Below, piece after piece: positions 8,628-42,814 of a stretch of DNA of 64,000 nt. The stretch's first letter is position 1. The number at the start of each line of letters is the position of its first letter. The notes below the pieces were generated by a model. The model was not told the origin of the DNA. It saw only the letters and a list, made by a program, of their open reading frames with translations, and searched no databases. The DNA comes from a virus: the IMG/VR virus record IMGVR_UViG_3300020048_005080; one strand, given 5' to 3'. The translations under genes and the position numbers were made by a program.

Positions 8628-8628
8628 A

Positions 8629-8964
8629 TTATTTTTCTTTGATTGTTTGTTCTGATTTAACTCTGTACCCTTTTTCTTCTTCTAAAGATTCTCTAAATCT
8701 TTTTAAAAATTCTTTAGCGTCTTTTTCATTGTCGTAATATCTATAGGCATACATTTCGTATCCTATCATATAACAGCAATTCATCCAGATTAAAGCAAAG
8801 GGAACTCTTTGTTGAATGTAATATCTTTTCTCCCCGTTTTGATAAATTACTTTTCTGATCCTGTGTCCCCATGAATATTTGGAAATATCAGACATATGGA
8901 AAAAAATTATACAAAATAACGGAAGTAATATAACTAATACTGATGCTATAGTAAGAAATTTCAT
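8629..8964 (-). CDS. hypothetical membrane protein
   Basis: N-terminal TM helix LTIASVLVILLPLFCIIFF. Confidence 0.4.
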   Translation of the reverse strand: MKFLTIASVLVILLPLFCIIFFHMSDISKYSWGHRIRKVIYQNGEKRYYIQQRVPFALIWMNCCYMIGYEMYAYRYYDNEKDAKEFLKRFRESLEEEKGYRVKSEQTIKEK

Positions 8965-8979
8965 TGATAGTGGTTTAAA

Positions 8980-14347: not shown

Positions 14348-15534
14348 TGTTACAAGAATTTTTAGATCTTATAGAAAGCAAGTCTCCAGGAGCACAGCCT
14401 CTTCTTATTGTTAAGAGAGGATCGCAGGCTTATGGTACTGCCATTCCCACATCAGATATTGATTATGCTGGAGTTTATATCCAACATATTGATAATATAT
14501 TGGGCTATGGCTACAAAGAGCAGATCAATGATGATAAGAATGACACTGTTTTTTATGAGATTAAAAGATTCTTAGATCTTGTATCTACAAATAACCCGAC
14601 TATTTTAGAGCTCTTAAACACACCAGAAGACTGCATTCTATATAAACACCCATTGATAGGTGAGATACTTCAGCACAGAGACAAATTCATCACTAAAAAG
14701 TGTTCTAATTCATTTGCTGGGTATGCTATTCAACAGATTAAGAAGGCAAAAGGACAGGACAAGAAACAAAACTGGGAGAAAGACAAAGTAACACGTAAAG
14801 ACGTTCTAGACTTTTGCTATGTTATAAAAGGAGAAAAATCTATGCCTTGGAAAGTTTGGAGCGAAGCCCGTTACGAAGAGAAATTTGTTGGTGTTGTAAA
14901 TTTACCTAATGCAAGGGATGTTTATGCTGTTTATTATGATACTGATTCTCACCTTTGCTTTTCTGAATCAATTCCGGAAGGTTCTAGAAATGTATATAAA
15001 AATAATCGAAAAGAATTAGGACTTGTTATGGGTCTAGGCTATAAAGGTCTAGTTAAGTCGGGTGAAGGTGCTAACGTTGCTGAATCCAACCAATTGAGAC
15101 TTTCAAGTATACCCAAAGGAGAAACCCCTATATGTAATATCATATACAATAAAGATGGTTACACTGCACATTGTAAAGATTATAGAGAATACCAAGAATG
15201 GTTAGATAATCGAAATGAACAGAGATGGACTGATGTTAAGACCCACGATCAGAAGATTGATGGTAAAAATATGATGCACTGTCGTAGACTCCTAGAAATG
15301 GCTAAAGAAATTGCTGAAGGTAAAGGCATTCTTGTAAGAAGAGAAAATGCTCAGGAGCTATTAGCAATTAGAAGAGGAGAGGTTGATCTACAAAGTCTAA
15401 TTGATAGAGCTGAAAATGACATCGTAGAAATTGATAGATTATTTAAAGAATCAGATCTTCCAGAATCGGTTGATCTTGGCTTTATTAATGATTTACTTGT
15501 TTCAGTAAGAAAAGAATTTTACGGATTAGCATAA
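14347..15534 (+). CDS. Pol-beta superfamily nucleotidyltransferase (GS-x9-DxD)
   Basis: RGSQAYGTAIPTSDIDYAGVY is the minimal nucleotidyltransferase signature. I cannot assign the subfamily, which could be RNA-repair associated, OAS-like or CD-NTase-like. Confidence 0.55.
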   Translation: MLQEFLDLIESKSPGAQPLLIVKRGSQAYGTAIPTSDIDYAGVYIQHIDNILGYGYKEQINDDKNDTVFYEIKRFLDLVSTNNPTILELLNTPEDCILYKHPLIGEILQHRDKFITKKCSNSFAGYAIQQIKKAKGQDKKQNWEKDKVTRKDVLDFCYVIKGEKSMPWKVWSEARYEEKFVGVVNLPNARDVYAVYYDTDSHLCFSESIPEGSRNVYKNNRKELGLVMGLGYKGLVKSGEGANVAESNQLRLSSIPKGETPICNIIYNKDGYTAHCKDYREYQEWLDNRNEQRWTDVKTHDQKIDGKNMMHCRRLLEMAKEIAEGKGILVRRENAQELLAIRRGEVDLQSLIDRAENDIVEIDRLFKESDLPESVDLGFINDLLVSVRKEFYGLA

Positions 15535-16465: not shown

Positions 16466-17067
16466 TGAGATTTATTGCTATAATTATAGCGTCGTTCTTT
16501 TTTCTTTCAAATGCTGTAGATACAAATGCTGTAGATAATAAGAAGAGAGAGATTAAGGTTGATGCAGGAATATACACAGTGCTATATTCAGAAGCTCTAG
16601 AACAGCCTAAAGAAGTTTGGTACACAGTGGAATGTACAGACGGAAGGGTTTCTAGGAAAGGAATGGATTTTTACACTAACGATTCAATCTATACATCATC
16701 TAAAGAGGATTACGAAAATAACGAATGGGATAAAGGCCATATGGCACCTGCAGCGGATTTTTCTTGTGAAAAGACAACATTATATCAGACATTCTCTTAT
16801 CTTAATTGTTCTTTACAGCATCAGGATTTAAACAGAGGTGTATGGAGACTATTAGAATCTAGAGAAAGAGAGTTAGCAAAAAAGACCGATGTTGAAATTC
16901 ATATATTAGTAGACTTCACTAAAGGCACAAAGAAATTACCATCAGGTGCAACAGTACCAGGTGGATATAGAAAAGAAATAAGATATAGTGGGAAGACTGA
17001 GGTATATTATTTCAAAAATGAAAAACCTTTATCAAATTCTTTCGATAAGTATATCGTTAAGAATTAA
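16465..17067 (+). CDS. secreted DNA/RNA non-specific endonuclease (NucA/EndoG family)
   Basis: Signal peptide MRFIAIIIASFFFLSNA and the active-site motif DKGHMAPAADF, which corresponds to DRGH. Confidence 0.75.
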   Translation: MRFIAIIIASFFFLSNAVDTNAVDNKKREIKVDAGIYTVLYSEALEQPKEVWYTVECTDGRVSRKGMDFYTNDSIYTSSKEDYENNEWDKGHMAPAADFSCEKTTLYQTFSYLNCSLQHQDLNRGVWRLLESRERELAKKTDVEIHILVDFTKGTKKLPSGATVPGGYRKEIRYSGKTEVYYFKNEKPLSNSFDKYIVKN

Positions 17068-17924
17068 GCCATATTTGATGCCCCAGTAGTAGTAATATTA
17101 AATTGATTTGCTATCGCTGTAGCTTTTTCTAGTCCTCCTAAATATGTGCCAGAAACATCGTTACCTAAACCAGCATTTATATTAACTATACCTTTTAAAG
17201 CAGTATTTTGATCGGTGAATGCGTTGATATCTTTAGTACCATATTTTCTCTGCATCACATCATTTTTTGCACCGTTAATAAAGAATAATACTGCTGCTTC
17301 TGCTGCTACATCAATTTCATTTAATTGATCTGGATTATTAACAATATCTACTTTTCTACCTAATTTATTGTCCTTATTCAACATATCTTGGTATTTCTGA
17401 TAAAGACTTTTGAAAGTTATACCATTAAATCCTCTTCCTCTATATTTGTAACCGTCGCCAGGTGCTGTATTACCTGTGTTCCAACCGAAATTTTTAGTTG
17501 CTGCTTGTCCATAAACCATATCATAGAATCTAACATCATCTTTTTTGATTGTCTCTAATTCAGCATCGCTTACCGTGATTCTTTTTCCAAATATTTTTCG
17601 AATTCTATCATTAGAAGTGTTTCTGTAACTGGTTTCGTCTTGCGGAATAAATCCAGACTCTTTTCCTATACATCCAAGAATTGCTTTTTGAGTATACGGG
17701 TTAGTTATTCCGTGTCTTTTCATTGCATCCATAATAGCTTGAACGTTCTTAGCTTTGTCTCCAGATACCGGTATATTAGTTATAGATCCAGATATTGGAG
17801 ATGCACCAGTTTTAGATTGATCATTAGGATCACCAAATAACGCATTTGATAATTTCTTACCATAATCACCAAAAAGCTGTTCGTTAACTGCTTTGAATTC
17901 TTCTATAGATTTTAAATGTTTCAT
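17064..17924 (-). CDS. GH19-like muramidase with N-terminal targeting tag
   Basis: YRGRGFNGITFKSLYQKY...AAVLFFIN resembles the GH19 catalytic region. The N-terminus is MKHLKSIEEFKAVNEQLF. Confidence 0.55.
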   Translation of the reverse strand: MKHLKSIEEFKAVNEQLFGDYGKKLSNALFGDPNDQSKTGASPISGSITNIPVSGDKAKNVQAIMDAMKRHGITNPYTQKAILGCIGKESGFIPQDETSYRNTSNDRIRKIFGKRITVSDAELETIKKDDVRFYDMVYGQAATKNFGWNTGNTAPGDGYKYRGRGFNGITFKSLYQKYQDMLNKDNKLGRKVDIVNNPDQLNEIDVAAEAAVLFFINGAKNDVMQRKYGTKDINAFTDQNTALKGIVNINAGLGNDVSGTYLGGLEKATAIANQFNITTTGASNMA

Positions 17925-18815: not shown

Positions 18816-19130
18816 ATGAGTAAAAAAGTTTATCTTATCAAAGGTGCATTAGTCGATACGGAAGGAAAAAAAGAATGGATAGAATCAATAACAGCTTCTA
18901 AAGAAAGAGCAAATAAAATAAAAGCTCAATTGAATCGTTCATTAGAGGATGAGATTATCGTATCAAAAGAAATATTTGATAAGTACACTAAAGAGGGTTC
19001 AGAAGAATTAGAATGGGGTAAAATGGAATTTCACACTGATAATATGACAGATGACGAATTCGAAAAGTTCTGTATTTATAGATACGGAACTAAGATGCCA
19101 TTTAAAATAGAAGTATCAGATCTTGTCTAG
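18816..19130 (+). CDS. hypothetical protein
   Basis: 104-aa ORF. Confidence 0.45.
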   Translation: MSKKVYLIKGALVDTEGKKEWIESITASKERANKIKAQLNRSLEDEIIVSKEIFDKYTKEGSEELEWGKMEFHTDNMTDDEFEKFCIYRYGTKMPFKIEVSDLV

Positions 19131-20002
19131 ATACTTCCTTTTAAATTTCTTCTACTAACAATAGCTTTTATTCTCCTTTCAGCTTTATTAGATACACCTC
19201 TAGCCCATTCAGCGGTTCTTTCAAACGATTCCCCAATTTGTCTAAAAGATTGGGGTTCTTTATTTTCATCTAATCCGTATTTAAGTATAGTGATTTGTCT
19301 TTCCATTGGTTTGAGCTCGGATAATATACTCATTATAGATTTTTTTAAATCCTCATTTATTATATTACTGTCTGTGCTTGTTTCAGATTCTATCCAATTG
19401 ATAGGACTAAAAGAATCATCATCACTAGCATTTGTGCTACTTTCTAAAGGAATCGATCTTGGTGTATTTTTAATAGTTTCTATAGCTGATGCTGATAATT
19501 GAATATCCGTGTTCTCTTCTATTATTAATAACATTTCATCAATCGAAGGTTCTCTTCCGTGATAAGAAATAAAGCTTTCTTCCAGAGTTTGGTATTGTCT
19601 TAATTGTTGTGTGATATTAGTAGGGATTCTAACAGATCTTGAATTATTGTTCAGATACAGAAATATATTTTTTCTGATATGCCATACAGCATAACTGATA
19701 AATTTAAAACCTGTAGACGGATCGAAAGTTTCTATAGCTTCTACTAGACCTTTATTACCTTCAGATATTAGATCCTCTAAAGGATTTTGTTGTGAAGCAT
19801 AAGCTTTAGCAACAGATACAACAAATCTTAGATTTGATTTTAATATAAGCTCTTTAGCTTTAAGATCTCCATTTTTTGATTTAACTGCTAATTCAGCTTC
19901 TTTCTCAGGACTTAATATTTCATACTTACTTATTTCAGTGAAATATCTAGATATATTATCGTTAGTATTTGTAATTCTATTGATAATCTTAAATTCCCTC
20001 AT
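19127..20002 (-). CDS. RNA polymerase sigma-70 family factor (divergent)
   Basis: Region 2 is LRFVVSVAKAYASQQNPLEDLISEGNKGLVEAIETFDPSTGFKFISYAVWHIRKNI. Region 4 is the helix-turn-helix SFRQIGESFERTAEWARGVSNKAERRIK. Confidence 0.75.
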   Translation of the reverse strand: MREFKIINRITNTNDNISRYFTEISKYEILSPEKEAELAVKSKNGDLKAKELILKSNLRFVVSVAKAYASQQNPLEDLISEGNKGLVEAIETFDPSTGFKFISYAVWHIRKNIFLYLNNNSRSVRIPTNITQQLRQYQTLEESFISYHGREPSIDEMLLIIEENTDIQLSASAIETIKNTPRSIPLESSTNASDDDSFSPINWIESETSTDSNIINEDLKKSIMSILSELKPMERQITILKYGLDENKEPQSFRQIGESFERTAEWARGVSNKAERRIKAIVSRRNLKGSI

Positions 20003-20657: not shown

Positions 20658-22184
20658 ATGATAAATCCAGCTCTGCTAACAGACGGGTATAAAACTGGGC
20701 ATCACCAGCAATATCCCAAGGGAACGACATTAGTCTATTCCAATTTTACACCAAGAAGCAACAAGTACGCACCTAAGGGATGTGATATGGTAGTTTCTTT
20801 CGGACAACAATTAATCATGAAGCAAATTCACGAGAGTTTTAGAAAAGATTTCTTTGATCAACCAAAAGAAGCAGTATGTAAAGAGATTAGAGAGGAGCTC
20901 TCTTTATACCTAGGTGTAGATTATGACACAAGTCATTTCGAAGCTCTTCATGATCTTGGACATCTTCCTATTAAAGTTAAAGCATTACCAGAAGGCACAT
21001 TGGTTCCTATTAAAGTTCCAGTTTTAACTATCTACAATACAAACCCAGATTTTTACTGGATAACAAATTATTTGGAAACCCTAGTTTCTAATCTTCTTTG
21101 GAAACCAATAACCTCAGCAACTATTGCATTCCAATACAAAAGAGTACTTACAGAATGGGCTCTTAAAACAAATCAAGAAGCTAAAGAATTTGTTTACTGG
21201 CAAGGACACGATTTCTCTATGAGAGGTTTAGATTCTATTGATGCTGTAGTTTCATCTGGACTTGGTCACTTAACATCATTCTACGGTACGGATTCTCTTC
21301 CAGCAATTTACGGAGCACGTAAATTCTACGGAGCAGAAGGATTTGTTGGAGGCTCAGTTCCTGCAACAGAACACTCAGTTATGTGTGCAGGTGGTAAAGA
21401 AGACGAGATTGATACGTTCAGAAGATTACTTGAAACATATCCTAAAGGAATTCTTTCTGTAGTATCTGATACATGGGATTTATGGAAAGTGTGTACAGAA
21501 CACGTAGTCACTTTGAAAGATGAAATTCTTGCTCGTGATGGTAAATTAGTTATACGTCCTGACTCAGGAGATCCGGTTGATATTCTTTGTGGGTGGGGTG
21601 GCTTTGATCCTGAAGGTGAAAGCGAAGAAGCTAAAAATGAGCCACAAAATAAAGGAGTAATTGAATTACTTTGGGACGTATTTGGCGGAACAGTCAATGC
21701 TCAAGGTTACAAAGTACTTGACCCACACATCGGAGCTATCTATGGGGATTCAATCACAATCGACAGAGCAAATGAAATCTGCGCAAGACTAGAAGCAAAA
21801 GGATTCGCATCAACAAATGTTGTATTAGGGGTTGGTTCTTTCACTTATCAATATAACACTCGTGACACATTTGGTTTTGCAATGAAAGCAACGTATGTCG
21901 AAGTAAATAAACCAAAATTCGAAGGCGATTTCAATCCAGAAGGACGTGAGATCTTTAAAGATCCTATCACAGATGATGGAACAAAAAAATCTGCAACGGG
22001 ATTATTAAGTGTTCACAGTCATGATGGCGAATTGGTTTTAATTGACAAATGTACATGGGAAGGTGAAGAGGTTAGTTTATTACAAACAATTTACCAAGAC
22101 GGTATTTTTCACAATCCAGTTACTCTAAATGAAATCAGAGAGAAATTAGATAAAGCTATACATTTACAATTCGAATTAGCTTAA
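20658..22184 (+). CDS. nadV: nicotinamide phosphoribosyltransferase (NAMPT family)
   Basis: N-terminus MINPALLTDGYKTGHHQQYPKGT. The 508-aa length and colinear conservation are typical of NadV/NAMPT. Confidence 0.85.
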   Translation: MINPALLTDGYKTGHHQQYPKGTTLVYSNFTPRSNKYAPKGCDMVVSFGQQLIMKQIHESFRKDFFDQPKEAVCKEIREELSLYLGVDYDTSHFEALHDLGHLPIKVKALPEGTLVPIKVPVLTIYNTNPDFYWITNYLETLVSNLLWKPITSATIAFQYKRVLTEWALKTNQEAKEFVYWQGHDFSMRGLDSIDAVVSSGLGHLTSFYGTDSLPAIYGARKFYGAEGFVGGSVPATEHSVMCAGGKEDEIDTFRRLLETYPKGILSVVSDTWDLWKVCTEHVVTLKDEILARDGKLVIRPDSGDPVDILCGWGGFDPEGESEEAKNEPQNKGVIELLWDVFGGTVNAQGYKVLDPHIGAIYGDSITIDRANEICARLEAKGFASTNVVLGVGSFTYQYNTRDTFGFAMKATYVEVNKPKFEGDFNPEGREIFKDPITDDGTKKSATGLLSVHSHDGELVLIDKCTWEGEEVSLLQTIYQDGIFHNPVTLNEIREKLDKAIHLQFELA

Positions 22185-27184: not shown

Positions 27185-27572
27185 TTCTTATCACCGATCC
27201 CTGTCCGTGCATAACTTGAATAATGTAAGATCCCATATAATAAGCTTCTCCCGTGAACATATTCAGATATTTTTCATCTGTACATTCTTTGCAATATTTC
27301 TTTGCGTATCCTAAAGCTATCCATAGAAGAGATTCTCTAGGTTCATATCCTAAAGAATATTCTCTTCTTACGTATTCATCAGAATCGTATTTTTCTATTA
27401 ACTTCTCAAGATAAGCGTCAATATCGGACTCTGCTAATTTTTTGAATTTTTCGATCCATCTATCTTTACGCTCTTCCTCTCTTTTTATTTTGTTTCCAAA
27501 TTCCTCAATGGATTTCTTACCCTCTTCGGTATCTAAAAATTCTCTCAATTTTTCTACCATGCTTTTACTCAT
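27168..27572 (-). CDS. hypothetical protein
   Basis: 134-aa ORF. Confidence 0.5.
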   Translation of the reverse strand: MSKSMVEKLREFLDTEEGKKSIEEFGNKIKREEERKDRWIEKFKKLAESDIDAYLEKLIEKYDSDEYVRREYSLGYEPRESLLWIALGYAKKYCKECTDEKYLNMFTGEAYYMGSYIIQVMHGQGSVIRIDKML

Positions 27573-28303
27573 AACTCAAATGTTGGTTTTAACCATATGC
27601 CCCTGCTGAAAACTAATTTAGTAAATCCAGGTAATGTATTTTCAACTTCTCTAAAAAGATCTAAAGATGCAACAGTGTCGTGCTTCATCATCTTAAAAAC
27701 TTCCTCTCTAATTCTTTCTGCAGAAACAACCTTCTCAAGCTTTTCTAAAATTTCAGGTTGTGTCATTGCAGAAATAATATCGTAATTTATTAGAAATCCC
27801 TTAGTAACCGCAAATCTTAAGGCTCTTAAAAACCTTAAAGGATCATCCATCATAGTCTGCTCAGCTGGAAGTGGTGTTCTTAATATTTTTCTTTCTAAAT
27901 CTTCTTTACCTCCAAATAGATCTATGATGTTTCCATCATCATCCTCTGCCATAGCATTTAGAGTAAAGTCTCTCCTGATAAGATCATCTTCCAAAGTTCC
28001 AAGAACCAAAATTGGCTGTCTTGTCCCCTGTACATATCCAATCTCTTTTCTTGCCATTACAAAATCTGCAACTAGTCCTTCGTTTTTATGTCCTTTTGGA
28101 AACTTAGCTCTGATAGTAAAACAATCAGGAGTAGACAAGAATATACTAAATGCCTCTTGGGCTAGCCAATTTGTCATTGATTGAAATCCTTCTTCTACTG
28201 TCTGATCTAGATTATCTAGAATAAATGTGAAATCGATATCTTTAGATTCTACGCCTAATAGCTTATCCCTTACACATCCTCCAACTTTAAATATCTGTGG
28301 CAT
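27569..28303 (-). CDS. tRNA nucleotidyltransferase (CCA-adding / poly(A) polymerase head domain, class II), minimal
   Basis: VGGCVRDKLLGVESKDIDFTF matches GGxVRD...DxD, and RRDFTLNAMA is the class II NTase motif. Confidence 0.8.
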   Translation of the reverse strand: MPQIFKVGGCVRDKLLGVESKDIDFTFILDNLDQTVEEGFQSMTNWLAQEAFSIFLSTPDCFTIRAKFPKGHKNEGLVADFVMARKEIGYVQGTRQPILVLGTLEDDLIRRDFTLNAMAEDDDGNIIDLFGGKEDLERKILRTPLPAEQTMMDDPLRFLRALRFAVTKGFLINYDIISAMTQPEILEKLEKVVSAERIREEVFKMMKHDTVASLDLFREVENTLPGFTKLVFSRGIWLKPTFEL

Positions 28304-28398: not shown

Positions 28399-29064
28399 TT
28401 ATTTAGATTCTTCTCTTTGCTTGTCATCAAAGTTAAGATCTTTTGAAAGTTGTTCCATATCAACATCACTTAAATTCATTGAAGCAAATTTAGAGCTTCT
28501 GTATTTAGACATGTTAGAAGAAACATTTGCAAATACATTCCCTGTTGATTTGTCATTTGATGAATAGTTAATTGAATTGGATCCTCTAATTCCTATAGAT
28601 CCACCAGCTTTAATAGCATCTTGGTTAGCTGCAAGGAATAAGAATTTCCATCCTGCTTCAGTTTGAGTTTCAATCATTTTCATAATTGCTTCTCTTTTAT
28701 AAGTCTTACTTGAGTTTTCTTCCCCGTCTGTGATGATTACAAAAACTACGTCTCTATCAGTATTAAGATCCTCAATAGTTTTACCAATAGCATCAAATAA
28801 TGAAGTACCACCTCTAGGAATGAAATTCTCTCCAAGAATTAATGGTGTTGCATCTTTTACTGGTAATCCTTGGTAATCCATTTCATATCTGTCATCGAAT
28901 TGTACAAGAGTGATAAATGCTTCACCTTCTGAATTTTTTTGCTCGTCTAAGAATTTATTAAATCCTTCAACTGTTGCTTTTCCTATAGAAGCCATAGATC
29001 CTGATCTATCCAAAATTACTACGATCTCTGTTTGTTCTGTGTTTTTAATTTTTTTACTTTCCAT
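28399..29064 (-). CDS. von Willebrand factor A domain protein
   Basis: The MIDAS motif is VVILDRSGSM. GGTSLFDAIG and FVIITDGEENSS are also present. Confidence 0.8.
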   Translation of the reverse strand: MESKKIKNTEQTEIVVILDRSGSMASIGKATVEGFNKFLDEQKNSEGEAFITLVQFDDRYEMDYQGLPVKDATPLILGENFIPRGGTSLFDAIGKTIEDLNTDRDVVFVIITDGEENSSKTYKREAIMKMIETQTEAGWKFLFLAANQDAIKAGGSIGIRGSNSINYSSNDKSTGNVFANVSSNMSKYRSSKFASMNLSDVDMEQLSKDLNFDDKQREESK

Positions 29065-29538: not shown

Positions 29539-30327
29539 TTAAATAAGCCCTTTAATCTCTGCTAGAATCTCTCTAAATCGAGCTAATTCTTTAATCCCTT
29601 TGTGATAAGCTAGACCTTCCTCTAATAGATCATACGTTTTAACCACCGTACTTCCTTCGTTATCTTTGTTTGCTAGAACTAACACAGTGTCAGCAATAGC
29701 ACAAGATGTTTCAATATCATGTGATACGACAACCAAAGTGTTCATTTCATCTAAGTTTGATACTTTAATAAGAAGTTCAACAACTTTATCTTTCATGATT
29801 GTGTCCAATCCAGAGAATGGTTCGTCCAAAAGAATAAATTTGTTACCTGCAAGAACTTGTTGTAAAATAGACACCCTCTGCTTTTGTCCTCCTGATAAAT
29901 CACAAGGGTATTTACTAAGCTGATCTGTTAATTCAAAATGCTCAGCATATTGTTTGATTGTCTCTATTTTCTCTTTACCCTTCATACTAGTTAAAGCTAA
30001 TGAAAGATTCGTCATAATAGTTCGATGATTAAATAGGTGATAATCCTGTGGTACCACACCCATTTCTCCAGTTTTAACCGGGTGTTGATCTGCTCCAACT
30101 TTAATATCTCCCGAATTGGCTTTGTTGTATCCAGATAGAAGTTTAAATAAAGATGTTTTACCACATCCGCTTCTTCCACATATTGCTACGATTTGCCCTT
30201 GTGTCATACCAGGTCTTGTAACATTATGGATCTGCATATTGATATCTTTTAGTATTGGCTTATCGTCATAAGTGAGACTCACATTATTGACAGATAAGAT
30301 CAATTCTTCTTTTTTGTAGTCAATCAT
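29539..30327 (-). CDS. ABC transporter ATP-binding protein (NitT/TauT-like)
   Basis: Walker A is GRSGCGKTS, the ABC signature is LSGGQKQRV, and Walker B is ILLDEPFSGLD. Confidence 0.85.
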   Translation of the reverse strand: MIDYKKEELILSVNNVSLTYDDKPILKDINMQIHNVTRPGMTQGQIVAICGRSGCGKTSLFKLLSGYNKANSGDIKVGADQHPVKTGEMGVVPQDYHLFNHRTIMTNLSLALTSMKGKEKIETIKQYAEHFELTDQLSKYPCDLSGGQKQRVSILQQVLAGNKFILLDEPFSGLDTIMKDKVVELLIKVSNLDEMNTLVVVSHDIETSCAIADTVLVLANKDNEGSTVVKTYDLLEEGLAYHKGIKELARFREILAEIKGLI

Positions 30328-31136
30328 TTTCTAAGAATTTTATTGATCCATAATTTATTATAACGAGTGGTATCTGTATAAGGGAAGATCCAAACTTTCA
30401 TTAAATCGAATAAGTAATCGAATACGATACCTATAATAAGAATCACAATTAATACACCAAACACATCGTCCATTTTTAAGTACTTATTAGATTTGATCAT
30501 CATAGTACCTAAACCTCCTTCAGACATACAAATCCCTTCCACTGAAGTTATCATCATCCAAGCAATTGCAAAGTTCTGTCTAATAACTTCCAGAACTAAA
30601 TGAAGCTTACCTTTAATAACCACTTCATATAATGTCTTCCATGTGCTGAATTTAAGGGAGTAACAAAGTTCGTATTCTTTCTTAGGTATATCTCCAATGT
30701 AAGCTAAAAGAGATGTAACAAAGTATGGTATAATACCAAATAAAAGCAGTGAGATCTTAATATCGCTTCCATCCTTGATGAGTATAGTAAAGACGAATAA
30801 AAGTCCAGTATACGTCAAGAAACGAAGCTTAGAAACGAATATTGCTATTCCTTTAAAAGCTGGAATTAATGCAAGATAAACTATAGCTAAAGAAATAGTT
30901 ATAGATATCACCATTCCTTTTAGTATTAGTCCTAGTGTTGCGAAGAAGTTATCTAAGAATCCAGGTCCTGTAATAATCTTCCATGATGAATTTAAAATTC
31001 CTGAAGGTTTAGGAAGTAACTCATTTCCGTTTACCTGTGCTATAAATAGAAATATAGCTATTTGAATTATCCCGATGATAAGCATAGTTCTTACACTTAC
31101 GCTCTCTAGGAATCTTGGTGAGAATATTTTCTTCAT
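30324..31136 (-). CDS. ABC transporter permease
   Basis: Six predicted TM helices. It is overlap-coupled to the ATPase. Confidence 0.7.
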   Translation of the reverse strand: MKKIFSPRFLESVSVRTMLIIGIIQIAIFLFIAQVNGNELLPKPSGILNSSWKIITGPGFLDNFFATLGLILKGMVISITISLAIVYLALIPAFKGIAIFVSKLRFLTYTGLLFVFTILIKDGSDIKISLLLFGIIPYFVTSLLAYIGDIPKKEYELCYSLKFSTWKTLYEVVIKGKLHLVLEVIRQNFAIAWMMITSVEGICMSEGGLGTMMIKSNKYLKMDDVFGVLIVILIIGIVFDYLFDLMKVWIFPYTDTTRYNKLWINKILRK

Positions 31137-31151
31137 CTTATTTATATAATA

Positions 31152-31190
31152 AGGGGCTACTCAGTTGAGAATAGCCCCTTTTATTGTTTT
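31152..31190 (-). terminator. intrinsic terminator-like hairpin
   Basis: AGGGGCTA-12 nt loop-TAGCCCCT followed by TTTATTGTTTTT. Confidence 0.5.
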
Positions 31191-31192
31191 TA

Positions 31193-32968
31193 TTATTGTC
31201 CTAAGATTGAAATCTCTACTCTTCGGTTTTGTGCTCTTCCTGCTGCATTTGAATTGCTAGCAATTGGATTTGAAGATCCGTATCCTTTAGATTGTAGACG
31301 TGTAGAAGTCATACCTTTTTGCTTTAAGTAATTAAGTACTGATAAAGCTCTTTGTTCAGATAAAGGAAGGTTGATAGACTCACTACCTACATTATCTGTA
31401 TAACCTCCGATAAGTACTTTAGTACCATCTGCTGTTACTGCGTCTTGAAAAATCTCATCTAATACACTCATAGAAGATGCAGAGATTTGAGCAGATCCTG
31501 TGACGAACTCGATGTGATAAGATTTATTACCAATCTTATTTGTCATCTTAGTGTTCGTATAGTCTGTCAAATTGATCTTACCTTGTAATAGATCTGGGTT
31601 GTTTGCTACAACTGACATTAGGATCGATTTATCAAATGCTTTAGAGTAATCTAAGTATGATGGTAAATCGCTAGAGTAATACTTAGACTGTAATGTACCG
31701 AATGTATTATAGATTGCTCTGTAGATGTCCGTGTTGTCAGTTTTACCTTCTACATAAATACCTAACATATTCGCCATATCACCCAAGTTAAATACCATCG
31801 AACCTCCTAAGTGTGTGTCATCGTCAGTTTTAATACCGTTGTAGTATGTGTACCAATATTGACCATTTTGTTCGTCGTAAATTTTAGCATTCAATCCGCA
31901 AGCAAATCTTTTAGCATCATCGAATGTACGGATTTGATCCCCTGCAATAGCAGTGCATTTAGTGATTTCCTCTGCTGCTGTACGGTGATCGTTTAACCAC
32001 TTACGACATGTGATAGTGATGTTAGGCATAATTGAAGAATATTCTTTAGTAGAGATAATAGTTACTCCGCCACGTCCATTCTTAGCATTAACGTCACCAG
32101 GTGTCCAAGTAGCAACTAAGTCCGCTCTTACTGTAGTGTCACGTCCAATAGTTTTACCGTCTTTCATGATCTTACGTGTTTCTCTATATCCTGAGTTGTA
32201 TTTAACTACAGCATCTAAGAAATCTTTACAGTACATGAAGTTAAGAGCATCAGGATCATATGTTGTTTCGTCTACGTTAACTTTTACACCATTGTCTCCT
32301 GCTAATTTAAGAGCTAAGTCTAAGTCTCCATCCATACGATAACCAACGATTGTTGCTCCTTTTAGATTTTGCTTATTGTTCTTGTATTTGATATCTCCAA
32401 TAACTTGGTCTTCTCCATAAGATTTACCAGTTGTTAAGAAGGCTACCGGCTGATATTCAGGACCTAAATCTTTCACTGCATTTGAAATACCTGTAATATA
32501 AGAAGGAATTCCTGATCCCATAAAGGTGATGAATACACCTGGTGTGTTAGGATTGCTTTTATACTCCTTACAGAATTTAACTAATTCAGCGCAAGATTGA
32601 GCACAGTCGTCTTGACGGATAAGGCTGATATCCAAACCTGAGCGATCAAATAAAGATCCTTTTGTTGTTTGTTTACCTCCATTTGCATAAGCAATACCGT
32701 TTTGTGATTGCCAAGCCATGATGTACCAATTAACTTTAGTACCTCCGTTGTTTGCAGGTTCAGCTGAAGGAAAGTTCAACTTGATAGCTGCTTTTCCAGA
32801 TAATGAAGCTTCGGGAGCGTCTGGAATTGCCACTTGTCCGAATGTTTTTGAGTCTTCTACTTCGTGTGGTCTGTTGTCCCACCATAACACTTTAAGTGCG
32901 AAGATTACTGCTACAGCGAATAGTCCAATAACGACTTTACCGCTTGTTTTTAACTTTACATTTGCCAT
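31193..32968 (-). CDS. periplasmic substrate-binding-like protein fused to a C-terminal OmpA/MotB peptidoglycan-binding domain
   Basis: N-terminal signal anchor and an SBP-like body. The C-terminal OmpA signature is DNVGSESINLPLSEQRALSVLNYL...RRVEISI. Confidence 0.7.
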   Translation of the reverse strand: MANVKLKTSGKVVIGLFAVAVIFALKVLWWDNRPHEVEDSKTFGQVAIPDAPEASLSGKAAIKLNFPSAEPANNGGTKVNWYIMAWQSQNGIAYANGGKQTTKGSLFDRSGLDISLIRQDDCAQSCAELVKFCKEYKSNPNTPGVFITFMGSGIPSYITGISNAVKDLGPEYQPVAFLTTGKSYGEDQVIGDIKYKNNKQNLKGATIVGYRMDGDLDLALKLAGDNGVKVNVDETTYDPDALNFMYCKDFLDAVVKYNSGYRETRKIMKDGKTIGRDTTVRADLVATWTPGDVNAKNGRGGVTIISTKEYSSIMPNITITCRKWLNDHRTAAEEITKCTAIAGDQIRTFDDAKRFACGLNAKIYDEQNGQYWYTYYNGIKTDDDTHLGGSMVFNLGDMANMLGIYVEGKTDNTDIYRAIYNTFGTLQSKYYSSDLPSYLDYSKAFDKSILMSVVANNPDLLQGKINLTDYTNTKMTNKIGNKSYHIEFVTGSAQISASSMSVLDEIFQDAVTADGTKVLIGGYTDNVGSESINLPLSEQRALSVLNYLKQKGMTSTRLQSKGYGSSNPIASNSNAAGRAQNRRVEISILGQ

Positions 32969-33008
32969 TTTGTTTTTCTTTTTAAATTAATACTGATTTT
33001 TACTGATT

Positions 33009-34001
33009 TTACTTTAACAGATTGTCATACGAATCTGAACTAGCTTTTGGAGTAGGCATTACTACCTCCGGCTTAGCATTTTCACCTTCATTGTTGTAAA
33101 TGAATAATTCTGGTTTATATTCTTCTAGCATTCTTAGACCCTCAATTTGATAAGAAGCATTTTCTAAATCGATTGATTTCATAAAGTCTGAAGAGTAGCT
33201 TATTGCTTTTTTCATTGAAGCAAGTTTACCTGCGATGTCATCTTTAAGGTAATCCATGCTTTGTTCTACCATTAAACGTTTTTCTACGTCCCCATTAAAG
33301 ATAGACATTGCTGATTTAAGAGCGTTGTTACCTTTGGTTACTGAATGATAAAGATCCTTTTTTAACTCAAGATCATTCTTCATATCATCTAGCATGAATT
33401 TTGAATTTTTATGGACCTGAGTAAGGTATGCTCCTATTTTATCGAGATTGTCACGGATAGGGGTTAATTGTTGGATATAACCTTCCAATCTAGATACCTG
33501 TCGTGTAGCTGTAGCAAGTTCCATTCCCATGTTATTTGCTTTTGCTGCTGCAGCGATATCGAGTTGTTTTCTTTTCTCTTTTTCCTTCTCTTTAATCTTA
33601 GAGTCAATACCTTCTTTTTGACCATCAACCTCTACTGATTTATTATAGAGATTTTCTCTCTCTTTCTCAATATCTTTGATGTAATCTTCTGCTATAATAA
33701 ATGGATCTAATTCGATTACGATTCCTACCAATTTTTTAAGAAGGATCTCGTAAAGATAAAATAGACTCATCCATAATTTACGATTTGAAAGAATCATATA
33801 AAGAATGAAAGCTACTGCACATGCAATACCAAAATTGATGGTATTCCAAACGATAGTTGTAAGAAGCGGAACTACATAATATCCTATTGCTCCTAAAATA
33901 CCCAATCCTAAGATTGATCCTATTTTACCTCCCGGACGATTCCAGTAGGATTTAATTTTATTTTCCTTGGAGTCACCAGAGGGAAAGACCTGTGTATTCA
34001 T
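33009..34001 (-). CDS. membrane protein with coiled-coil domain
   Basis: Two TM helices followed by a long coiled coil. Confidence 0.5.
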   Translation of the reverse strand: MNTQVFPSGDSKENKIKSYWNRPGGKIGSILGLGILGAIGYYVVPLLTTIVWNTINFGIACAVAFILYMILSNRKLWMSLFYLYEILLKKLVGIVIELDPFIIAEDYIKDIEKERENLYNKSVEVDGQKEGIDSKIKEKEKEKRKQLDIAAAAKANNMGMELATATRQVSRLEGYIQQLTPIRDNLDKIGAYLTQVHKNSKFMLDDMKNDLELKKDLYHSVTKGNNALKSAMSIFNGDVEKRLMVEQSMDYLKDDIAGKLASMKKAISYSSDFMKSIDLENASYQIEGLRMLEEYKPELFIYNNEGENAKPEVVMPTPKASSDSYDNLLK

Positions 34002-34012: not shown

Positions 34013-34678
34013 TTATTTGATTAGATTATTGATTTTTTGTAGATCTGATGCGATCATAGATTTTCTAGATTCACATGCTGCTTTGTAAGTCAAAGACTTT
34101 TGGTTTGCTTTATTTTCTTGCTCAGATGCTTCAGCTTCAAGTTTAGCAATACCAACAGTTTCGTTTGCAATTTCTTGTTGAAGATTTTTAATCATATCTT
34201 CACGTTCCATTATAGATTTCCTTTTCTGTTCTGCTTCTGATCTTTTGTTTTGCACATCGGAAAGAATTTTTTGATCAATTGCACTATTGAATTTGTTAGC
34301 GTCCTCATCAATAATAGCAATATAATGATTTGCAGACTCAAGCAATTTTTCTTTGGTTAGACCTTGTACCTGTAGACCTCCAAATGCTGCAGTGAATTTC
34401 ATATCCTCTGGTAATGTGCTCATTGCCTGACACATTTTGGAAAATTCAAAGTAATCAGGACCAGGAAGATTTGCCTTATCAAATAGCTCATCGAAGTGCT
34501 GATTGAATTTTTGTAGGTCATCCGTAGAAACAGAAACTGTTCCCTGATATGATGTTGTGCGTGCTTCCATTGGTATTGGAGGCACTGTTGTATTTGTCTG
34601 GGTAAGAACTGGCGGAGTATTTTTTTGATCTCCTTTTGGTTCCTCTTCCCTTTCAATAAAATAATCTATTAATCCCAT
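34013..34678 (-). CDS. coiled-coil protein (start chosen at MGLIDYF)
   Basis: The promoter cassette at 34700-34750 lies inside the longer ORF from the track (34013..34753), so the internal ATG at 34678 is preferred. Confidence 0.45.
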   Translation of the reverse strand: MGLIDYFIEREEEPKGDQKNTPPVLTQTNTTVPPIPMEARTTSYQGTVSVSTDDLQKFNQHFDELFDKANLPGPDYFEFSKMCQAMSTLPEDMKFTAAFGGLQVQGLTKEKLLESANHYIAIIDEDANKFNSAIDQKILSDVQNKRSEAEQKRKSIMEREDMIKNLQQEIANETVGIAKLEAEASEQENKANQKSLTYKAACESRKSMIASDLQKINNLIK

Positions 34679-34699
34679 TTCTATTTTAGTTTGGTTTTT

Positions 34700-34752
34700 A
34701 ATTATGGTGTAAAGATAGAAACTTCCATTTGATAAAAAAAACGTTTCCTTCA
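34700..34752 (-). promoter_or_regulatory. promoter cassette
   Basis: On the minus strand: GAAACGTTTTTTTTATCAAATGGAAGTTTCTATCTTTAC. Confidence 0.5.
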
Positions 34753-34823
34753 TTTTTTACTGAAATTTACTGAAAAAATTTCAATACCCCTTATATTATT
34801 AAAAAACACGCACGCGTATGACC

Positions 34824-34861
34824 ACAAAAAAAGCCAGAAAAACTGGCTTTTAATTTTTTTT
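34824..34861 (-). terminator. rho-independent terminator
   Basis: AAGCCAGAAAAACTGGCTT hairpin flanked by an A-run and TTAATTTTTTTT. Confidence 0.65.
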
Positions 34862-38174: not shown

Positions 38175-38987
38175 TTATTTAAGCAGAGCGTAATATTCTT
38201 TGAAATGCTTAATTCTATCAGGAAGACCAATAGTTCCACCATTAACTCTTTTAGTTACCGCAGTCACTGTTGCATCATCAGCACCTTTATCACAGATAGA
38301 CCAAAGTTTATTTGAATTGAAGAAGAATGCAGCTGAAGCTAAAGGATATTTAGTCGCAACCAAATCTGGGTTTGCAACAGTATCTTCTCCTATGAATTTA
38401 GCGAAGTTAGTGTAATTTGATTTTCCAGTTAATTGAATATAACCTCTACCACGAAACTTGAATCCTTCTTTAGAAGATTCATCGCCATTACCCATACGGG
38501 AAGCATAAACTCTAGCAGCAATCTTTTCTGGCTGACGAGCATAAGATTCGTTAAGATTTCCAGGGAAATATTTACCAAATATTTTCTTAAGTCCGTCTGC
38601 TGAATAATTTAAGTTTTCTGAAACTGCTTTAAATCCTCCAGACTCGTGTCCGCATTGAGCAAGAAAATGAGCTAATCTAAGAACGTTAGTGATTCCAAAT
38701 TTAGCTGCAGTATCTGGGATTTGTGCAATTACAGAATCAGGAACGTGTCCTTTTAGTTTTTCTAATTTGAAAGGAGATGAAGGAACTGCTAAATCTGATT
38801 CTAGCAATATTCCCATTTTTTTAAGTGTAACCGGACCAGCTACACCATCGTCTTTTAGACCGTTAGATTTTTGCCAAGCTTTTAATGAGGTATCAACTTG
38901 AGCGTCAAAAGTACCGTTAATTGGAAGTCCTAAGAAATTTTGGAGTTTTTCTACTTCTACTCCTACAGAGCCTAATTTAAGTATCAT
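38175..38987 (-). CDS. endolysin: PG_binding_1 domain plus GH19 muramidase/chitinase-like catalytic domain
   Basis: The N-terminus LKLGSVGVEVEKLQNFLG...DGVAGPVTLKKMG is a PG-binding domain. The catalytic region has FKFRGRGYIQLTGKSNYTNF and AAFFFN. Confidence 0.85.
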   Translation of the reverse strand: MILKLGSVGVEVEKLQNFLGLPINGTFDAQVDTSLKAWQKSNGLKDDGVAGPVTLKKMGILLESDLAVPSSPFKLEKLKGHVPDSVIAQIPDTAAKFGITNVLRLAHFLAQCGHESGGFKAVSENLNYSADGLKKIFGKYFPGNLNESYARQPEKIAARVYASRMGNGDESSKEGFKFRGRGYIQLTGKSNYTNFAKFIGEDTVANPDLVATKYPLASAAFFFNSNKLWSICDKGADDATVTAVTKRVNGGTIGLPDRIKHFKEYYALLK

Positions 38988-39679: not shown

Positions 39680-40255
39680 CTAATTGTTTTTATTCTCGCT
39701 GGCGTATTTAACACCCATGATAGTACCAACTATTGAGAAAGCATTAGTCAGAAGAATACCAAACATATTACTCCATGTAGATCCTATGATCTGTGTGTCC
39801 TTTCCTGTCATCATTGCAATTCCGTACATAATAGTCGTAATAACACCAACACTTATAATAACTAATAAAGCAACTTTAACAATTGTTCCTATAAGTTCTG
39901 TCTGTGATTTTTTTTGCATTACGTCTAAATCGTTTAATGCAATATCTTTTGCTTCTAGAGCTTCATTTTTAGAATCCTCTGCTTCATGTAATGCAATCTT
40001 AAGCTCCTCGTTTATTCTTGTATTCTCCTCTTCAGAAGCTTGGAGCTCACGATTTCGTTCTTGTACCTGTTTAGTTATTTCAAGTCTTTTCCTCCTACCG
40101 TCTTTATCCTTCTCTATTGATACGGAGAGATAATTTTTAAAATCATTATCTCCATCCTCTGCCTCAAGGATCTTTAGTATATTACCTTCTAAGCTTACCC
40201 TTTTTGTTTTTTGTATTTCAAGTAAGCAATCCCTGACTTCTTTACTTACTTTCAT
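39680..40255 (-). CDS. coiled-coil protein with C-terminal TM helices
   Basis: 191-aa ORF. Confidence 0.5.
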   Translation of the reverse strand: MKVSKEVRDCLLEIQKTKRVSLEGNILKILEAEDGDNDFKNYLSVSIEKDKDGRRKRLEITKQVQERNRELQASEEENTRINEELKIALHEAEDSKNEALEAKDIALNDLDVMQKKSQTELIGTIVKVALLVIISVGVITTIMYGIAMMTGKDTQIIGSTWSNMFGILLTNAFSIVGTIMGVKYASENKNN

Positions 40256-40686
40256 TACTTATAAATCTTAAATGGATTTGTTCTATTTTTGTATCCTGGA
40301 AAATCATTTTTGAAATCCTCTAATCTTGGTTCAATATCATCTGATTTTATAATCCAAAATTGAGCACCTGCTTTAACTGCTTTAGCTTGTTCTTCTGGTT
40401 CATTAGAGGAAGATATTATTCCAATAACAACATTATTACCATACTCAAAATTAATCTTACGGATTAATTCTATACCATCATAGGAAGATCCAATTATGTT
40501 TAGGTCTACAAATACACATTCAGGTTTTCCGTCTGGATTTTTTTGCCATTCTGCAAAAAGTCTAGCAGCTTCATCTGAGCTATCAAGACTTTCTAAAGAA
40601 AGTGAAATATCAAGAAGACTGCAAGCATCTTCAAATACAAGATGAAATAGACTTTCGTCATCTACTAATAAAATTGAATCAATCAT
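40255..40686 (-). CDS. response regulator receiver (REC-only) protein
   Basis: ILLVDDE and FVDLNI are the phospho-acceptor context. The protein is CheY-like in size. Confidence 0.7.
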   Translation of the reverse strand: MIDSILLVDDESLFHLVFEDACSLLDISLSLESLDSSDEAARLFAEWQKNPDGKPECVFVDLNIIGSSYDGIELIRKINFEYGNNVVIGIISSSNEPEEQAKAVKAGAQFWIIKSDDIEPRLEDFKNDFPGYKNRTNPFKIYK

Positions 40687-42814
40687 TTTTTAAGTTTATT
40701 TTTATTTGACTTCCTTCAACTGGAAGTTTATCACAAGAAACACTAAACCCATGTTCTTCTAATATTGCTATACATATATTTAATCCCAGACCAGTGCCAG
40801 ACTCTTTCTGTCCTTCCTTACGAGTATATGGTTGCGAAAGTAATTTGAACTCTTCTGAGCTTAATCCTCTTCCGTTATCCTCTACATATAATGTATCATC
40901 TATTCTATAGATCTTTACAATCTTATTATTGCTATCATTATATTTTAGGCCATTTCTGATTAAATTATCCAACGCTGTACAGAATAGTGCTTCGTTAACA
41001 CTTAATTCTCCTAAATCTGATAGATCAACCTGAGGTCTATATGCAGTTGCTGATAGATAATCCTCAAGAATATTTTTCAAATTACATTCTTCTCTATTAA
41101 GTACTACGTCTTTCTTTACAAGATTTGTAAACTCGTAAACTCCTTTATAAACTTTTTGTGTGTGACGAAGTCCTTCTTTAATCATTTTAATAGGGGCTTC
41201 AATCTTAAGTTCCTTTATTTGCTCCTCAGATAATCTTCTATCTAAAGAGCTTAGTCCTCTAGGCATGTATGTGTTAATGCCACTGTGCATATCATGTCTA
41301 AGTATTTTAGCAGCATGCTCAAGATACGTATTTTTCTTTTCTAGTTCTTTCTGTTGATTATAACTTTCAGTAATATCGGTAGCAATTTTCATCACTCGAT
41401 ATGGTTTTTCATCAGGTCCTATGATAGGATTGTATGTTGCTTGGAGATAAATTAATGCCCCATTTTTTCTTCTTCTTGTAACTTCGCCTCTGAAGAATTT
41501 TCCGTCGCTTAGTGATTTCCAAAAATCTTGATATTCTTTGGTATTCTTTTCTGAATTTTCTATAAATATGCTATGGTGTTTTCCTATAATTTCTTCTTGT
41601 GAATATCCTAATATGCTCAAAAATGAATCATTTGCAAATTTTATATTACCATCTAAATCAAATTCAATAACAGCATTTGATCTATTAATAGCATTCATTC
41701 TATTGGATATTTCAACCTCTTTTCTTTTTAACTCAGTTACATCTTGGCGTATAGAAGAGAATCCACAAAGTTTATTATTTTCGTCAAATCTAGCTTTAAT
41801 AAAAGTATCTACATAATATAGACTTCCGTCTTTAGCTCTATTTGTACAAACAGCATTCCATATTTTTTTTTCGGCTACAACTGTTTTGTACATATCACTC
41901 CAAAACTCTTTAGGATGTGTACCTGAGTTTACTATATTATGATCCCTTCCTATAACTTCATCTAAAGAATATCCAGAAACATCAGTGAATCTTTGATTTA
42001 CATAAGTTATTTTTCCTTTCTCGTCAGCAACTGAGATAATAGAAGAAGCATCAAGAAATTTTTCATTCTCAATTATTTCGTGAGATAATTTATTAGATTC
42101 TTTAACTGAATACCCAAACGAGTATAATGAAGAAAGCATCTGTGCAAAATCTACCTCGTCTTTATCCCATATTCTTGGTGAAAGACTTTCAATACATATA
42201 ACTCCTATTACTTCCCCTTTATACCAGATAGGAACATCGAGCATTGATTTTACACCTAATGGTTTAAGATATCCTTCTAAAAAACAAGAAGTTGCTGGAT
42301 GTGTTTCTGCATTATCTGCAATGATTATTGGATTATCTTTTATTGCTTCAAAATATGGAAAAAAGTCTTTCTCAAATAGCTCTATATCTTTATAAAAATT
42401 ATCCTCCGATCTAATATAAAGATTCTGACAGATAATAGACGTACGATCGTTATTATAAAGCCAAAAAGAACATCTATCAGATTCTATAGTATCTGAAACT
42501 TCTTTAGAAAGAATAGCAGATCCTGCTTCTATATTACCAGAAAAAAATACCTCATTATGAGATTGTCTGATTAAAGAGTCCGATAATTTCTTATTGTATT
42601 TTAATTTCTTTTTTTCCTGTCTGCTTTTATTTAAAAATGTTCTTCCTATAAAATATGAAGGGACACAGAAAGAAATAAAACATAGATACTCGATTAAATT
42701 GTAAAAATCTGAGTCTTTAACTATTCCGAATGTGATAGATGTTTTTATCACAAAGAAAAATATCATAATAAGAATAGCGGACGCCGTAGAAAATAATAAT
42801 CCAAATTTTTTCAC
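40679..42814 (-). CDS. sensor histidine kinase with TM, GAF-like and two PAS domains
   Basis: PAS region ITYVNQRFTDVSGYSLDEVIGRDH. H box RHDMHSGI. N box LIRNGLKYN. G boxes DNGRGL and GTGLGLNI. Confidence 0.85.
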   Translation of the reverse strand: MKKFGLLFSTASAILIMIFFFVIKTSITFGIVKDSDFYNLIEYLCFISFCVPSYFIGRTFLNKSRQEKKKLKYNKKLSDSLIRQSHNEVFFSGNIEAGSAILSKEVSDTIESDRCSFWLYNNDRTSIICQNLYIRSEDNFYKDIELFEKDFFPYFEAIKDNPIIIADNAETHPATSCFLEGYLKPLGVKSMLDVPIWYKGEVIGVICIESLSPRIWDKDEVDFAQMLSSLYSFGYSVKESNKLSHEIIENEKFLDASSIISVADEKGKITYVNQRFTDVSGYSLDEVIGRDHNIVNSGTHPKEFWSDMYKTVVAEKKIWNAVCTNRAKDGSLYYVDTFIKARFDENNKLCGFSSIRQDVTELKRKEVEISNRMNAINRSNAVIEFDLDGNIKFANDSFLSILGYSQEEIIGKHHSIFIENSEKNTKEYQDFWKSLSDGKFFRGEVTRRRKNGALIYLQATYNPIIGPDEKPYRVMKIATDITESYNQQKELEKKNTYLEHAAKILRHDMHSGINTYMPRGLSSLDRRLSEEQIKELKIEAPIKMIKEGLRHTQKVYKGVYEFTNLVKKDVVLNREECNLKNILEDYLSATAYRPQVDLSDLGELSVNEALFCTALDNLIRNGLKYNDSNNKIVKIYRIDDTLYVEDNGRGLSSEEFKLLSQPYTRKEGQKESGTGLGLNICIAILEEHGFSVSCDKLPVEGSQIKINLKND

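Follow-up and report, generated by a model that had tools for sequence, protein, structure and literature searches.

A probable five-gene envelope module of a huge phage joins a tethered binding protein and ABC importer to a PspA/ESCRT-III-like protein

The stretch of viral DNA considered here, IMG/VR record IMGVR_UViG_3300020048_005080 (64,000 nucleotides, called the window below), carries genes for an ATP-binding cassette (ABC) importer and for a binding protein that ends in an OmpA domain. In our judgement these genes probably make up the transporter half of an envelope module of five genes in a huge phage, one that probably infects Bacteroidota. The role of the module is most likely upkeep of the host envelope during infection, rather than simple nutrient scavenging. 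A sequence-only reading of the same DNA had described a cluster of three genes, for an ATPase, a permease and a protein of 591 amino acids (aa). The list of open reading frames (ORFs) bears out their coordinates and places them on the minus strand. The cluster as described was incomplete, since the three genes make up three-fifths of a five-gene unit that runs on the minus strand from 29539 to about 34678. In the order of transcription the unit and its signals are as follows.

34829..34851, no strand assigned: terminator-like palindromic hairpin with T-runs on both strands, from the fold scan
34013..34678, minus strand: gene 1 (g246), predicted cytoplasmic coiled-coil protein, from the ORF list, with its start (M26) set by homologues
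33009..34001, minus strand: gene 2 (g330), protein with two predicted transmembrane helices and a PspA/Vipp1/ESCRT-III-like hairpin, from AlphaFold and Foldseek
31193..32968, minus strand: gene 3 (g591), 591-aa protein with membrane anchor, binding domain and OmpA domain, from Pfam, AlphaFold and Foldseek
about 32879-32947, minus strand: membrane anchor of gene 3, residues 8-30, an N-terminal helix
about 31574-32743, minus strand: NMT1/TauA/NrtA-like substrate-binding domain of gene 3, residues about 76-465, from AlphaFold and Foldseek
31196-31540, minus strand: OmpA-like peptidoglycan-binding domain of gene 3, residues about 477-591, from Pfam and alignment
31146..31184, minus strand: hairpin within the operon, between genes 3 and 4 (core stem 31151-31180), from folding and conservation
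30324..31136, minus strand: gene 4, ABC importer permease of 270 aa, from BPD_transp_1
29539..30327, minus strand: gene 5, ABC ATPase of 262 aa, from ABC_tran and its motifs

What ties the importer to the two genes ahead of it? In the GTDB, scanned with one genome per species, 458 genomes hold a relative. The best 80 hits, all 50-53% identical, come mostly from Chitinophagales and Cytophagales, among them Chitinophaga, Puia, Niastella, Ferruginibacter, Chryseolinea and others. When the five window proteins were run by tblastn against 85 such loci, genes 1 to 5 were present in 77, 82, 85, 80 and 78 of them, and the gene order is the same in essentially every bacterial locus that is sufficiently long. 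One example, on a Bacteroidota chromosome contig (L003), has genes of 212 and 330 aa ahead of its homologues of genes 3-5; their products are 39% and 33% identical to those of the window ORFs at 34013-34753 and 33009-34001, and the neighbouring genes encode a TonB-dependent receptor and a protease with a type-IX secretion tail. Some bacteria have two copies of the module, as do one Cytophagales metagenome-assembled genome (L015 and L041) and one from Puia (L067 and L083). Gene 2 comes in two subtypes, one sharing 58-67% and the other 30-37% identity with the phage copy, which groups with the subtype frequent in Cytophagales loci.

The same arrangement is found in phages. The window itself is phage-like, with genes for a Dda-like helicase, an RNA ligase, NAMPT and PRPP synthetase and a weak match to a major head protein. 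In IMG/VR, 75 contigs carry a relative at 29-90% identity; 25 of them are at least 200 kb long and 43 at least 100 kb, and their GC contents range from 22% to 65%. Searched with hidden Markov models (HMMs) of the five families, 58 of 80 phage-like loci have the complete set, and gene 1 adjoins gene 2 in 69 of those 80, as it does in 77 of the 85 GTDB loci. Close relatives, on contigs of 162 kb and 88 kb and in IMG/VR UViG_3300032220_001761 (190 kb, 90% identity), have the module with the same two neighbours as in the window, the genes for a VWA-domain protein and a nucleotidyltransferase. More distant phage-like contigs (629 kb at 67%, 384 kb at 69% and 165 kb at 57% identity) keep the module despite rearrangements and insertions; in the 629-kb contig an extra 277-aa ORF lies between genes 3 and 4 (L002, 11769-12602). 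Compared as DNA with 50,697 phage records, the region gave no match; only searches at the protein level were informative.

Among named phages, the Lak megaphages, of about 540-550 kb, match gene 2, with a relative in all 15 Lak records that were hit. Prevotella phage Lak-A1 (MK250016.1) carries the complete five-gene set, in unchanged order, at 4040-10415, with a binding protein of 533 aa. The cultured Ralstonia phage RsoM2USA (MG752970.1, 344 kb) has a reduced form at 4347-7248, which consists of a gene-1-like gene (RsoM2USA_55), a gene-2-like gene (RsoM2USA_54), a 122-aa gene and a gene for an NMT1_3 binding protein (RsoM2USA_52). The OmpA domain and the ABC genes are absent from it. Since RsoM2USA keeps both the ESCRT-III-like pair and the binding protein, the link between them persists without the transporter. 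A further phage, LR756500.1 (462 kb), is counted as having only the genes of the transporter part and an ORF like gene 1; upstream of its binding protein lies a 368-aa ORF that was considered as a gene 2 and set aside, being only weakly alike (hhalign probability 31%).

Gene 2 gives the module its proposed membrane function. Its 330-aa product begins with two hydrophobic helices, followed by a long helical part. In the AlphaFold model the hairpin at residues 100-237 has a block-mean predicted local distance difference test score (pLDDT) of about 62-93, and not below 75 as far as about residue 210. In the PDB, the eight best hits by Foldseek are Vipp1/PspA polymers (probability 0.99-1.0), and archaeal CdvB is likewise among the hits. 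Against E. coli PspA (4whe), the target template modelling score (TM-score) is 0.79, with a root-mean-square deviation (rmsd) of 1.4 over 115 columns. The modelled helical hairpin (alpha1-alpha2/3) thus superposes on that of PspA and Vipp1. Several homologues bear the JGI label 'phage shock protein A'. On these purely structural grounds, we read gene 2 as a putative membrane-anchored member of the PspA/Vipp1/ESCRT-III superfamily.

The gene 1 frame extends, mechanically, to 34753. Its start is probably M26, at 34678, because the homologues begin at that position in the alignment. In the product an N-terminal amphipathic helix is followed by a variable linker of low complexity and then by a conserved NLPGPDY(Y/F)EF...QGL domain; a coiled coil forms the C-terminus. 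Neither gene 1 nor gene 2 matched a family significantly in Pfam and NCBIfam scans. The idea that the two are ESCRT-III paralogues was dropped when profile-profile comparison gave no homology.

Gene 3 is the protein for which the sequence-only reading had proposed a binding protein fused to OmpA, and Pfam domains, an AlphaFold model and a Foldseek match to TauA agree with that proposal. The OmpA domain (PF00691) at residues 488-582 is found with an E value of 1.5e-19 (70.5 bits against a cut-off of 27.2), and in NCBIfam the best matches of this region are the YiaD and PA1041 anchors. No Pfam or NCBIfam model matched residues 1-485, and a profile from 37 gene 3 homologues, run against the sequences in the PDB, recovered only OmpA-like chains. 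It is the model, built from the alignment of the 37 homologues (pLDDT 88.8, predicted TM-score 0.84), that points to a binding protein. It consists of a helix at residues 8-30, a linker of low confidence that contains a conserved linear motif at residues about 44-63, an alpha/beta domain with two lobes at about 76-465, and the OmpA domain. By Foldseek against the PDB, the middle domain matches TauA (6ssy_A; E 4e-10, target TM-score 0.79, rmsd 3.8), CmpA and NrtA (target TM-score about 0.6), and further the CmpC regulatory domain, ThiY-type and thiamine-binding proteins. The C-terminus matches the OmpA C-domain of Capnocytophaga (5wtp) at 43% identity and an rmsd of 1.0. Is there any support from sequence for the binding fold? 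The Lak-A1 homologue matches Pfam NMT1_2 (E 1.8e-9), NMT1 and OmpA, all over cut-off, and because it does so the fold of gene 3 is tied to a sequence family. Failure of this region to model as a periplasmic binding fold had been named as a result that would count against the proposal; the model, the Foldseek matches and the Lak-A1 domains all indicate the two-lobe, class-II fold. In two IMG/VR contigs, two further weak matches to the binding-protein model (E about 1e-16) lie downstream of the module (L097, 6522-9317; L100, 10603-13398).

Many of the invariant residues of gene 3 are aromatic or acidic; among the invariant positions are W86, Y172, K182, E186, D187, D213, D215, W288, D292, Y310, R347, W372 and Y375. 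In the OmpA domain D525 and R540, in the motif TD..G...N..LS..RA, are invariant in the 37 homologues, and we take them, by analogy with OmpA and Pal structures such as 3td5, to be contacts to peptidoglycan diaminopimelate. The protein is predicted to be held at both ends, by a transmembrane helix in the inner membrane and by a peptidoglycan-binding OmpA domain. The fusion had been thought unusual. Yet an exhaustive search with residues 31-485 gave 382 clusters at 50% identity, nearly all of about 600 aa (580-630 aa); a word-index search listed over 120 relatives of full length (52-100% identity), and the fusion has been described in bacteria (PMC11237479). As judged from sequence, fusion of the binding domain to OmpA is the norm in this family and not an oddity. 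Among the viral structures of BFVD, no protein with both the binding fold and an OmpA domain was found.

The two remaining proteins complete the transporter. Gene 5 matches ABC_tran (PF00005, E 2.5e-26), and its motifs, taken straight from the window translation, are intact: Walker A GRSGCGKTS, Q-loop VPQD, signature LSGGQKQR, Walker B with catalytic Glu ILLDEP, and H-loop VSHD. Gene 4, whose stop overlaps the start of gene 5 by 4 bases, matches BPD_transp_1 (PF00528, E 2.9e-8, 34.1 bits against a cut-off of 26.4) and has a recognisable EAA coupling loop, E-L-C-Y-S-L-K-F-S-T-W. Genes 3-5 have the parts that a type-I importer needs: the motifs of the ATPase are intact, the permease has its coupling loop, and the binding domain is class II and NMT1/TauA-like. 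Together they are, by motif and model, a putative type-I ABC importer of the NitT/TauT-like kind that depends on a substrate-binding protein. The sequence-only reading had suggested a sulfonate, nitrate or phosphonate importer and had proposed classification by HMM. The resemblance to NitT/TauT transporters came out as expected; the substrate assignment found no support, and all NCBIfam hits fall far below their curated cut-offs. For gene 5 the best are PhnT2 (126 bits against 457.7) and TauB (121.9 against 357), with SsuB and NtrCD-type importers also among the nearest models; for gene 4 they are SaoP (45.5 against 295) and TauC (30.5 against 342). A lead to SaoP/SaoA, a selenoprotein-linked ABC system, was dropped, the matches being weak and generic.

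How does the module compare with known systems? A bacterial operon of this type was flagged by comparative genomics in the PspA-system survey of Ravi et al. (mSystems 2024, PMC11237479), with OGG56892.1 of Candidatus Handelsmanbacteria as an example, and remodelling of the membrane was proposed there to be linked, in bacteria, to the transport of solutes. Both that operon and the window module have a membrane-anchored divergent Snf7/PspA-like protein, a protein with a signal or transmembrane segment, a periplasmic binding protein domain and OmpA, an ABC permease and an ABC ATPase. The published example adds a classical PspA and a double AAA+ ATPase and has another gene order (PMC11237479). In the window module no AAA+ gene adjoins, no classical PspA is recognisable, the coiled-coil gene comes first, and the whole is borne by a phage. 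It is a phage-borne variant of the operon type flagged earlier in bacteria. In the literature we did not find a report of the five-gene module in phages.

The importers of the NitT/TauT group (TauABC, SsuABC, NrtABCD/CmpABCD and ThiXYZ) share with the module the permease fold, similarity of ATPase sequence and the fold of the binding protein, which in them lacks the membrane anchor and OmpA domain seen in gene 3. In OpuA, GlnPQ and the lipoprotein binding proteins of Gram-positive bacteria and cyanobacteria, the binding domain is tethered or fused beside the transporter. The tether of gene 3 is of another kind, a separate transmembrane helix plus a peptidoglycan anchor in place of a lipid or a fusion to the permease. 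In layout gene 3 is like MotB, with an N-terminal transmembrane helix and a C-terminal OmpA-like domain. It differs from MotB, Pal and YiaD by the insertion of a binding domain of roughly 390 residues, and has no stator or Tol partner. Among phages, the cyanophage pstS is a single binding-protein gene carried by a phage. A pspA-like gene lies beside terD in Jug phages (PMC12880540), and the genome paper of RsoM2USA lists ORF54 as PspA-like (PMC8504454). In none of these reports is an ESCRT-III-like gene combined with a full ABC importer.

Between genes 3 and 4 lies a hairpin, which the sequence-only reading had noted as separating the gene for the binding protein from those for the permease and ATPase. 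The hairpin is real, and it lies at 31146-31184, not at 31152-31190. It folds with -21.7 kcal/mol (z -6.9; 0 of 200 shuffles fold equally well), and an interrupted U-rich stretch follows. With strong folding defined as a minimum free energy below -10 kcal/mol and z below -2.5 against mononucleotide shuffles, in spacers of 25-400 bases, the gene 3/gene 4 spacer is strongly folded in 71 of 92 bacterial and phage loci. Between the window and a second locus (L090) the stem shows three compensatory pair changes, and T-runs follow the stem in L090 and in the close relative L086. The recurrence of the hairpin and the compensatory changes support the earlier suggestion that the genes on its two sides are unevenly expressed, an effect that we infer from structure.

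The flanking terminators that had also been proposed stand only in part. The terminator-like palindrome at 34829-34851, which separates the five-gene unit from an upstream 386-aa gene, lies two genes further upstream; the 40-base spacer directly ahead of gene 3 (32969-33010) is without structure, and no canonical terminator was found downstream of the ATPase gene. A direct repeat on the minus strand, TCAGTAAAWWTCAGTA, with a TCAGTA motif, occurs exactly twice in the 64 kb, at 32991-33006 just upstream of gene 3 and at 34758-34773 upstream of gene 1. We make no claim for it as a regulatory element: none of the 166 related loci contains it, and 9 of 100 shuffles reach an equal count.

What would such a module do? 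We suggest that it would act on the envelope of the infected host cell. The ESCRT-III-like protein and its coiled-coil partner could polymerise on the cytoplasmic face and stabilise or reshape the inner membrane, and in the same place the wall-tethered importer would bring in a small solute. A guess at the solute would be an osmolyte or ion, of the structural class of taurine, sulfonate, nitrate or bicarbonate. The hairpin may raise the output of binding protein over that of permease and ATPase, either by partial termination or by protection of an mRNA 3' end. For a huge phage, with slow replication and a long latent period, the benefit might be that host membrane, proton-motive force and turgor are kept until lysis.

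Several points weigh against this proposal. The all-helical model of gene 2 has, as a whole, a moderate pLDDT of 66. Its Foldseek E values are about 1e-2 to 0.14, and coiled-coil hairpins draw spurious structural matches. In Pfam it stays below threshold, with Snf7 at E 0.084 and PspA_IM30 detected in 4 of 28 members at a best E of 0.039; a profile of gene 2 run against PDB sequences made chance hits only, such as GrpE. Gene 1 gave generic coiled-coil matches and no identifiable family in the searches made, a profile search of the PDB among them. As to the transporter, no named NCBIfam transporter cut-off is reached, so that the likeness to NitT/TauT systems is one at family level only, and the Gly of the coupling loop is Lys in the phage gene 4. 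(A bacterial permease homologue, in L003, is 49% identical to gene 4 and retains the Gly.) The phage identity of the IMG/VR contigs is that database's own classification. The literature yielded no experiment on any component of the module, bacterial or phage-borne. Finally, co-occurrence of the genes shows a functional link, and it leaves the nature of that link unspecified.

Nutrient acquisition during infection was how the sequence-only reading explained the genes, and it is the alternative that survives best. Genes 3-5 would import a sulfonate, nitrate, phosphonate or thiamine precursor for phage replication, and genes 1 and 2 would be mere neighbours. The nearest models of the ATPase (PhnT2, TauB, SsuB and the NtrCD type) and of the permease (TauC) fit this explanation, as do the likeness of the binding domain to TauA, NrtA, CmpA and ThiY and the wealth of metabolic genes in the window, NAMPT and PRPP synthetase included. 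We nevertheless think it unlikely, because genes 3-5 are tightly linked to the PspA/ESCRT-III-like and coiled-coil genes, which accompany them in the same order in nearly every bacterial and phage locus; in RsoM2USA the gene 1/gene 2 pair stays beside the binding protein even where the ABC genes are gone. The hits to named transporter families lie 3-10 times below the curated cut-offs, and no known nutrient scavenger has its binding protein doubly tethered, to both membrane and wall.

Could the ABC parts instead drive or read the tethered protein? In a sensor or force transducer of the FtsEX/MacB-like sort, they would signal the state of the envelope to the ESCRT-III-like protein, or remodel the attachment of membrane to wall. 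A binding protein fixed at both ends would not diffuse, its linker carries a conserved motif, the phage permease has another residue in place of the coupling-loop Gly, and RsoM2USA has the binding protein and the ESCRT-III-like pair with no ABC genes; each of these would suit a sensor. The permease fold, however, is that of a BPD_transp_1 type-I importer and not that of FtsX or MacB, the catalytic motifs of the ATPase are all intact, and tethered or fused binding proteins function normally in OpuA, GlnPQ and Gram-positive lipoproteins. We regard the sensor as quite improbable.

Is the module then a piece of host chromosome without a role in infection, carried as passenger DNA or joined by misassembly? 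Homologues of all five genes are common in Bacteroidota chromosomes, and the sequence-only reading had allowed that absence from related phages and high identity to the host would mark a recent passenger. Neither was found. The module is present in related phage contigs from other samples, and the GTDB scan gave no close bacterial match (53% identity at most). In neighbour-joining trees the phage-like sequences of genes 3, 4 and 5 are monophyletic and lie apart from the 80 bacterial ones. Because the phage genes form their own clade, and are no more than 53% identical to the bacterial versions recovered, the module is not a recent passenger. Composition is uniform across the window, that of the module matching the surrounding phage genes (34.7% GC, against 32.8% in the rest of the window), and the frames and motifs of the module are all intact. 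The passenger explanation is very hard to sustain; the module has resided long in a huge-phage lineage.

Equally remote is a part in superinfection exclusion or anti-defence, in which the envelope change would block a second phage or offset a membrane-depolarising abortive infection: PspA-type proteins limit proton leakage and the OmpA/MotB-like domain weakly matches ZorB models, but PADLOC returned only generic domain hits (OmpA domain to ZorB, ABC ATPase to mad3/mad8) with no system-level match, on which ground the defence-system reading was rejected, and in many bacteria the module is a chromosomal, housekeeping-like operon outside obvious defence islands.

Some further features of the window deserve mention. 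It has two sigma-factor-like genes (19127-20002 and 58872-59738) and two endolysin-like genes (17064-17924 and 38175-38987). NAMPT (PHROG E 1e-190) and a ribose-phosphate pyrophosphokinase, at 20658-22184 and 8980-9900, make up a nicotinamide adenine dinucleotide salvage pair as in large phages. At 40255-42814, on the minus strand, a 711-aa protein that matches the PHROG 'kinase' stands beside a 143-aa ORF. Since the matching pair in the close relative L086 is a GAF/PAS histidine kinase and a response regulator, the phage appears to encode a two-component system. Two nucleotidyltransferases of the CCA-adding/poly(A) polymerase type and the VWA-domain gene lie at 27569-28303, 14347-15534 and 28399-29064; in L086, too, the VWA gene and the 244-aa nucleotidyltransferase are found a few genes downstream of the module. 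L086 also encodes, at 2864-3169, an SmpB-like protein, the partner of transfer-messenger RNA. A tRNA scan found none.

What does the envelope module mean for the phages that carry it? PspA/Vipp1/ESCRT-III proteins are central to membrane repair, and the ABC and binding-protein partners of their divergent membrane-anchored relatives have been flagged by comparative genomics. Dozens of huge phages retain the module as a clade of its own, the Lak megaphages of human and animal guts among them, which suggests that management of the envelope is under strong selection while such phages infect. For annotation, the finding corrects a likely habit of calling such genes a nutrient transporter plus hypothetical proteins. 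Cultured carriers exist, Chitinophaga and Chryseolinea strains for the full module (among them Chitinophaga ginsengisoli DSM 18107 and Chryseolinea serpens DSM 24574) and RsoM2USA for the reduced form. A bolder and distinctly more doubtful extension is that huge phages of several bacterial phyla carry an ESCRT-III-type machine of their own that reshapes or protects the host inner membrane over a long infection. In it a membrane-anchored PspA/Snf7-like polymer and its coiled-coil partner would be in physical contact with the ABC transporter and its wall-tethered binding protein. If that is true, the machine could serve to make or preserve membrane structures, to sustain turgor and proton-motive force, or to set the time of lysis. 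It would be the first membrane-remodelling system of the PspA/ESCRT-III superfamily shown as a phage function, with RsoM2USA as the culturable entry to it.

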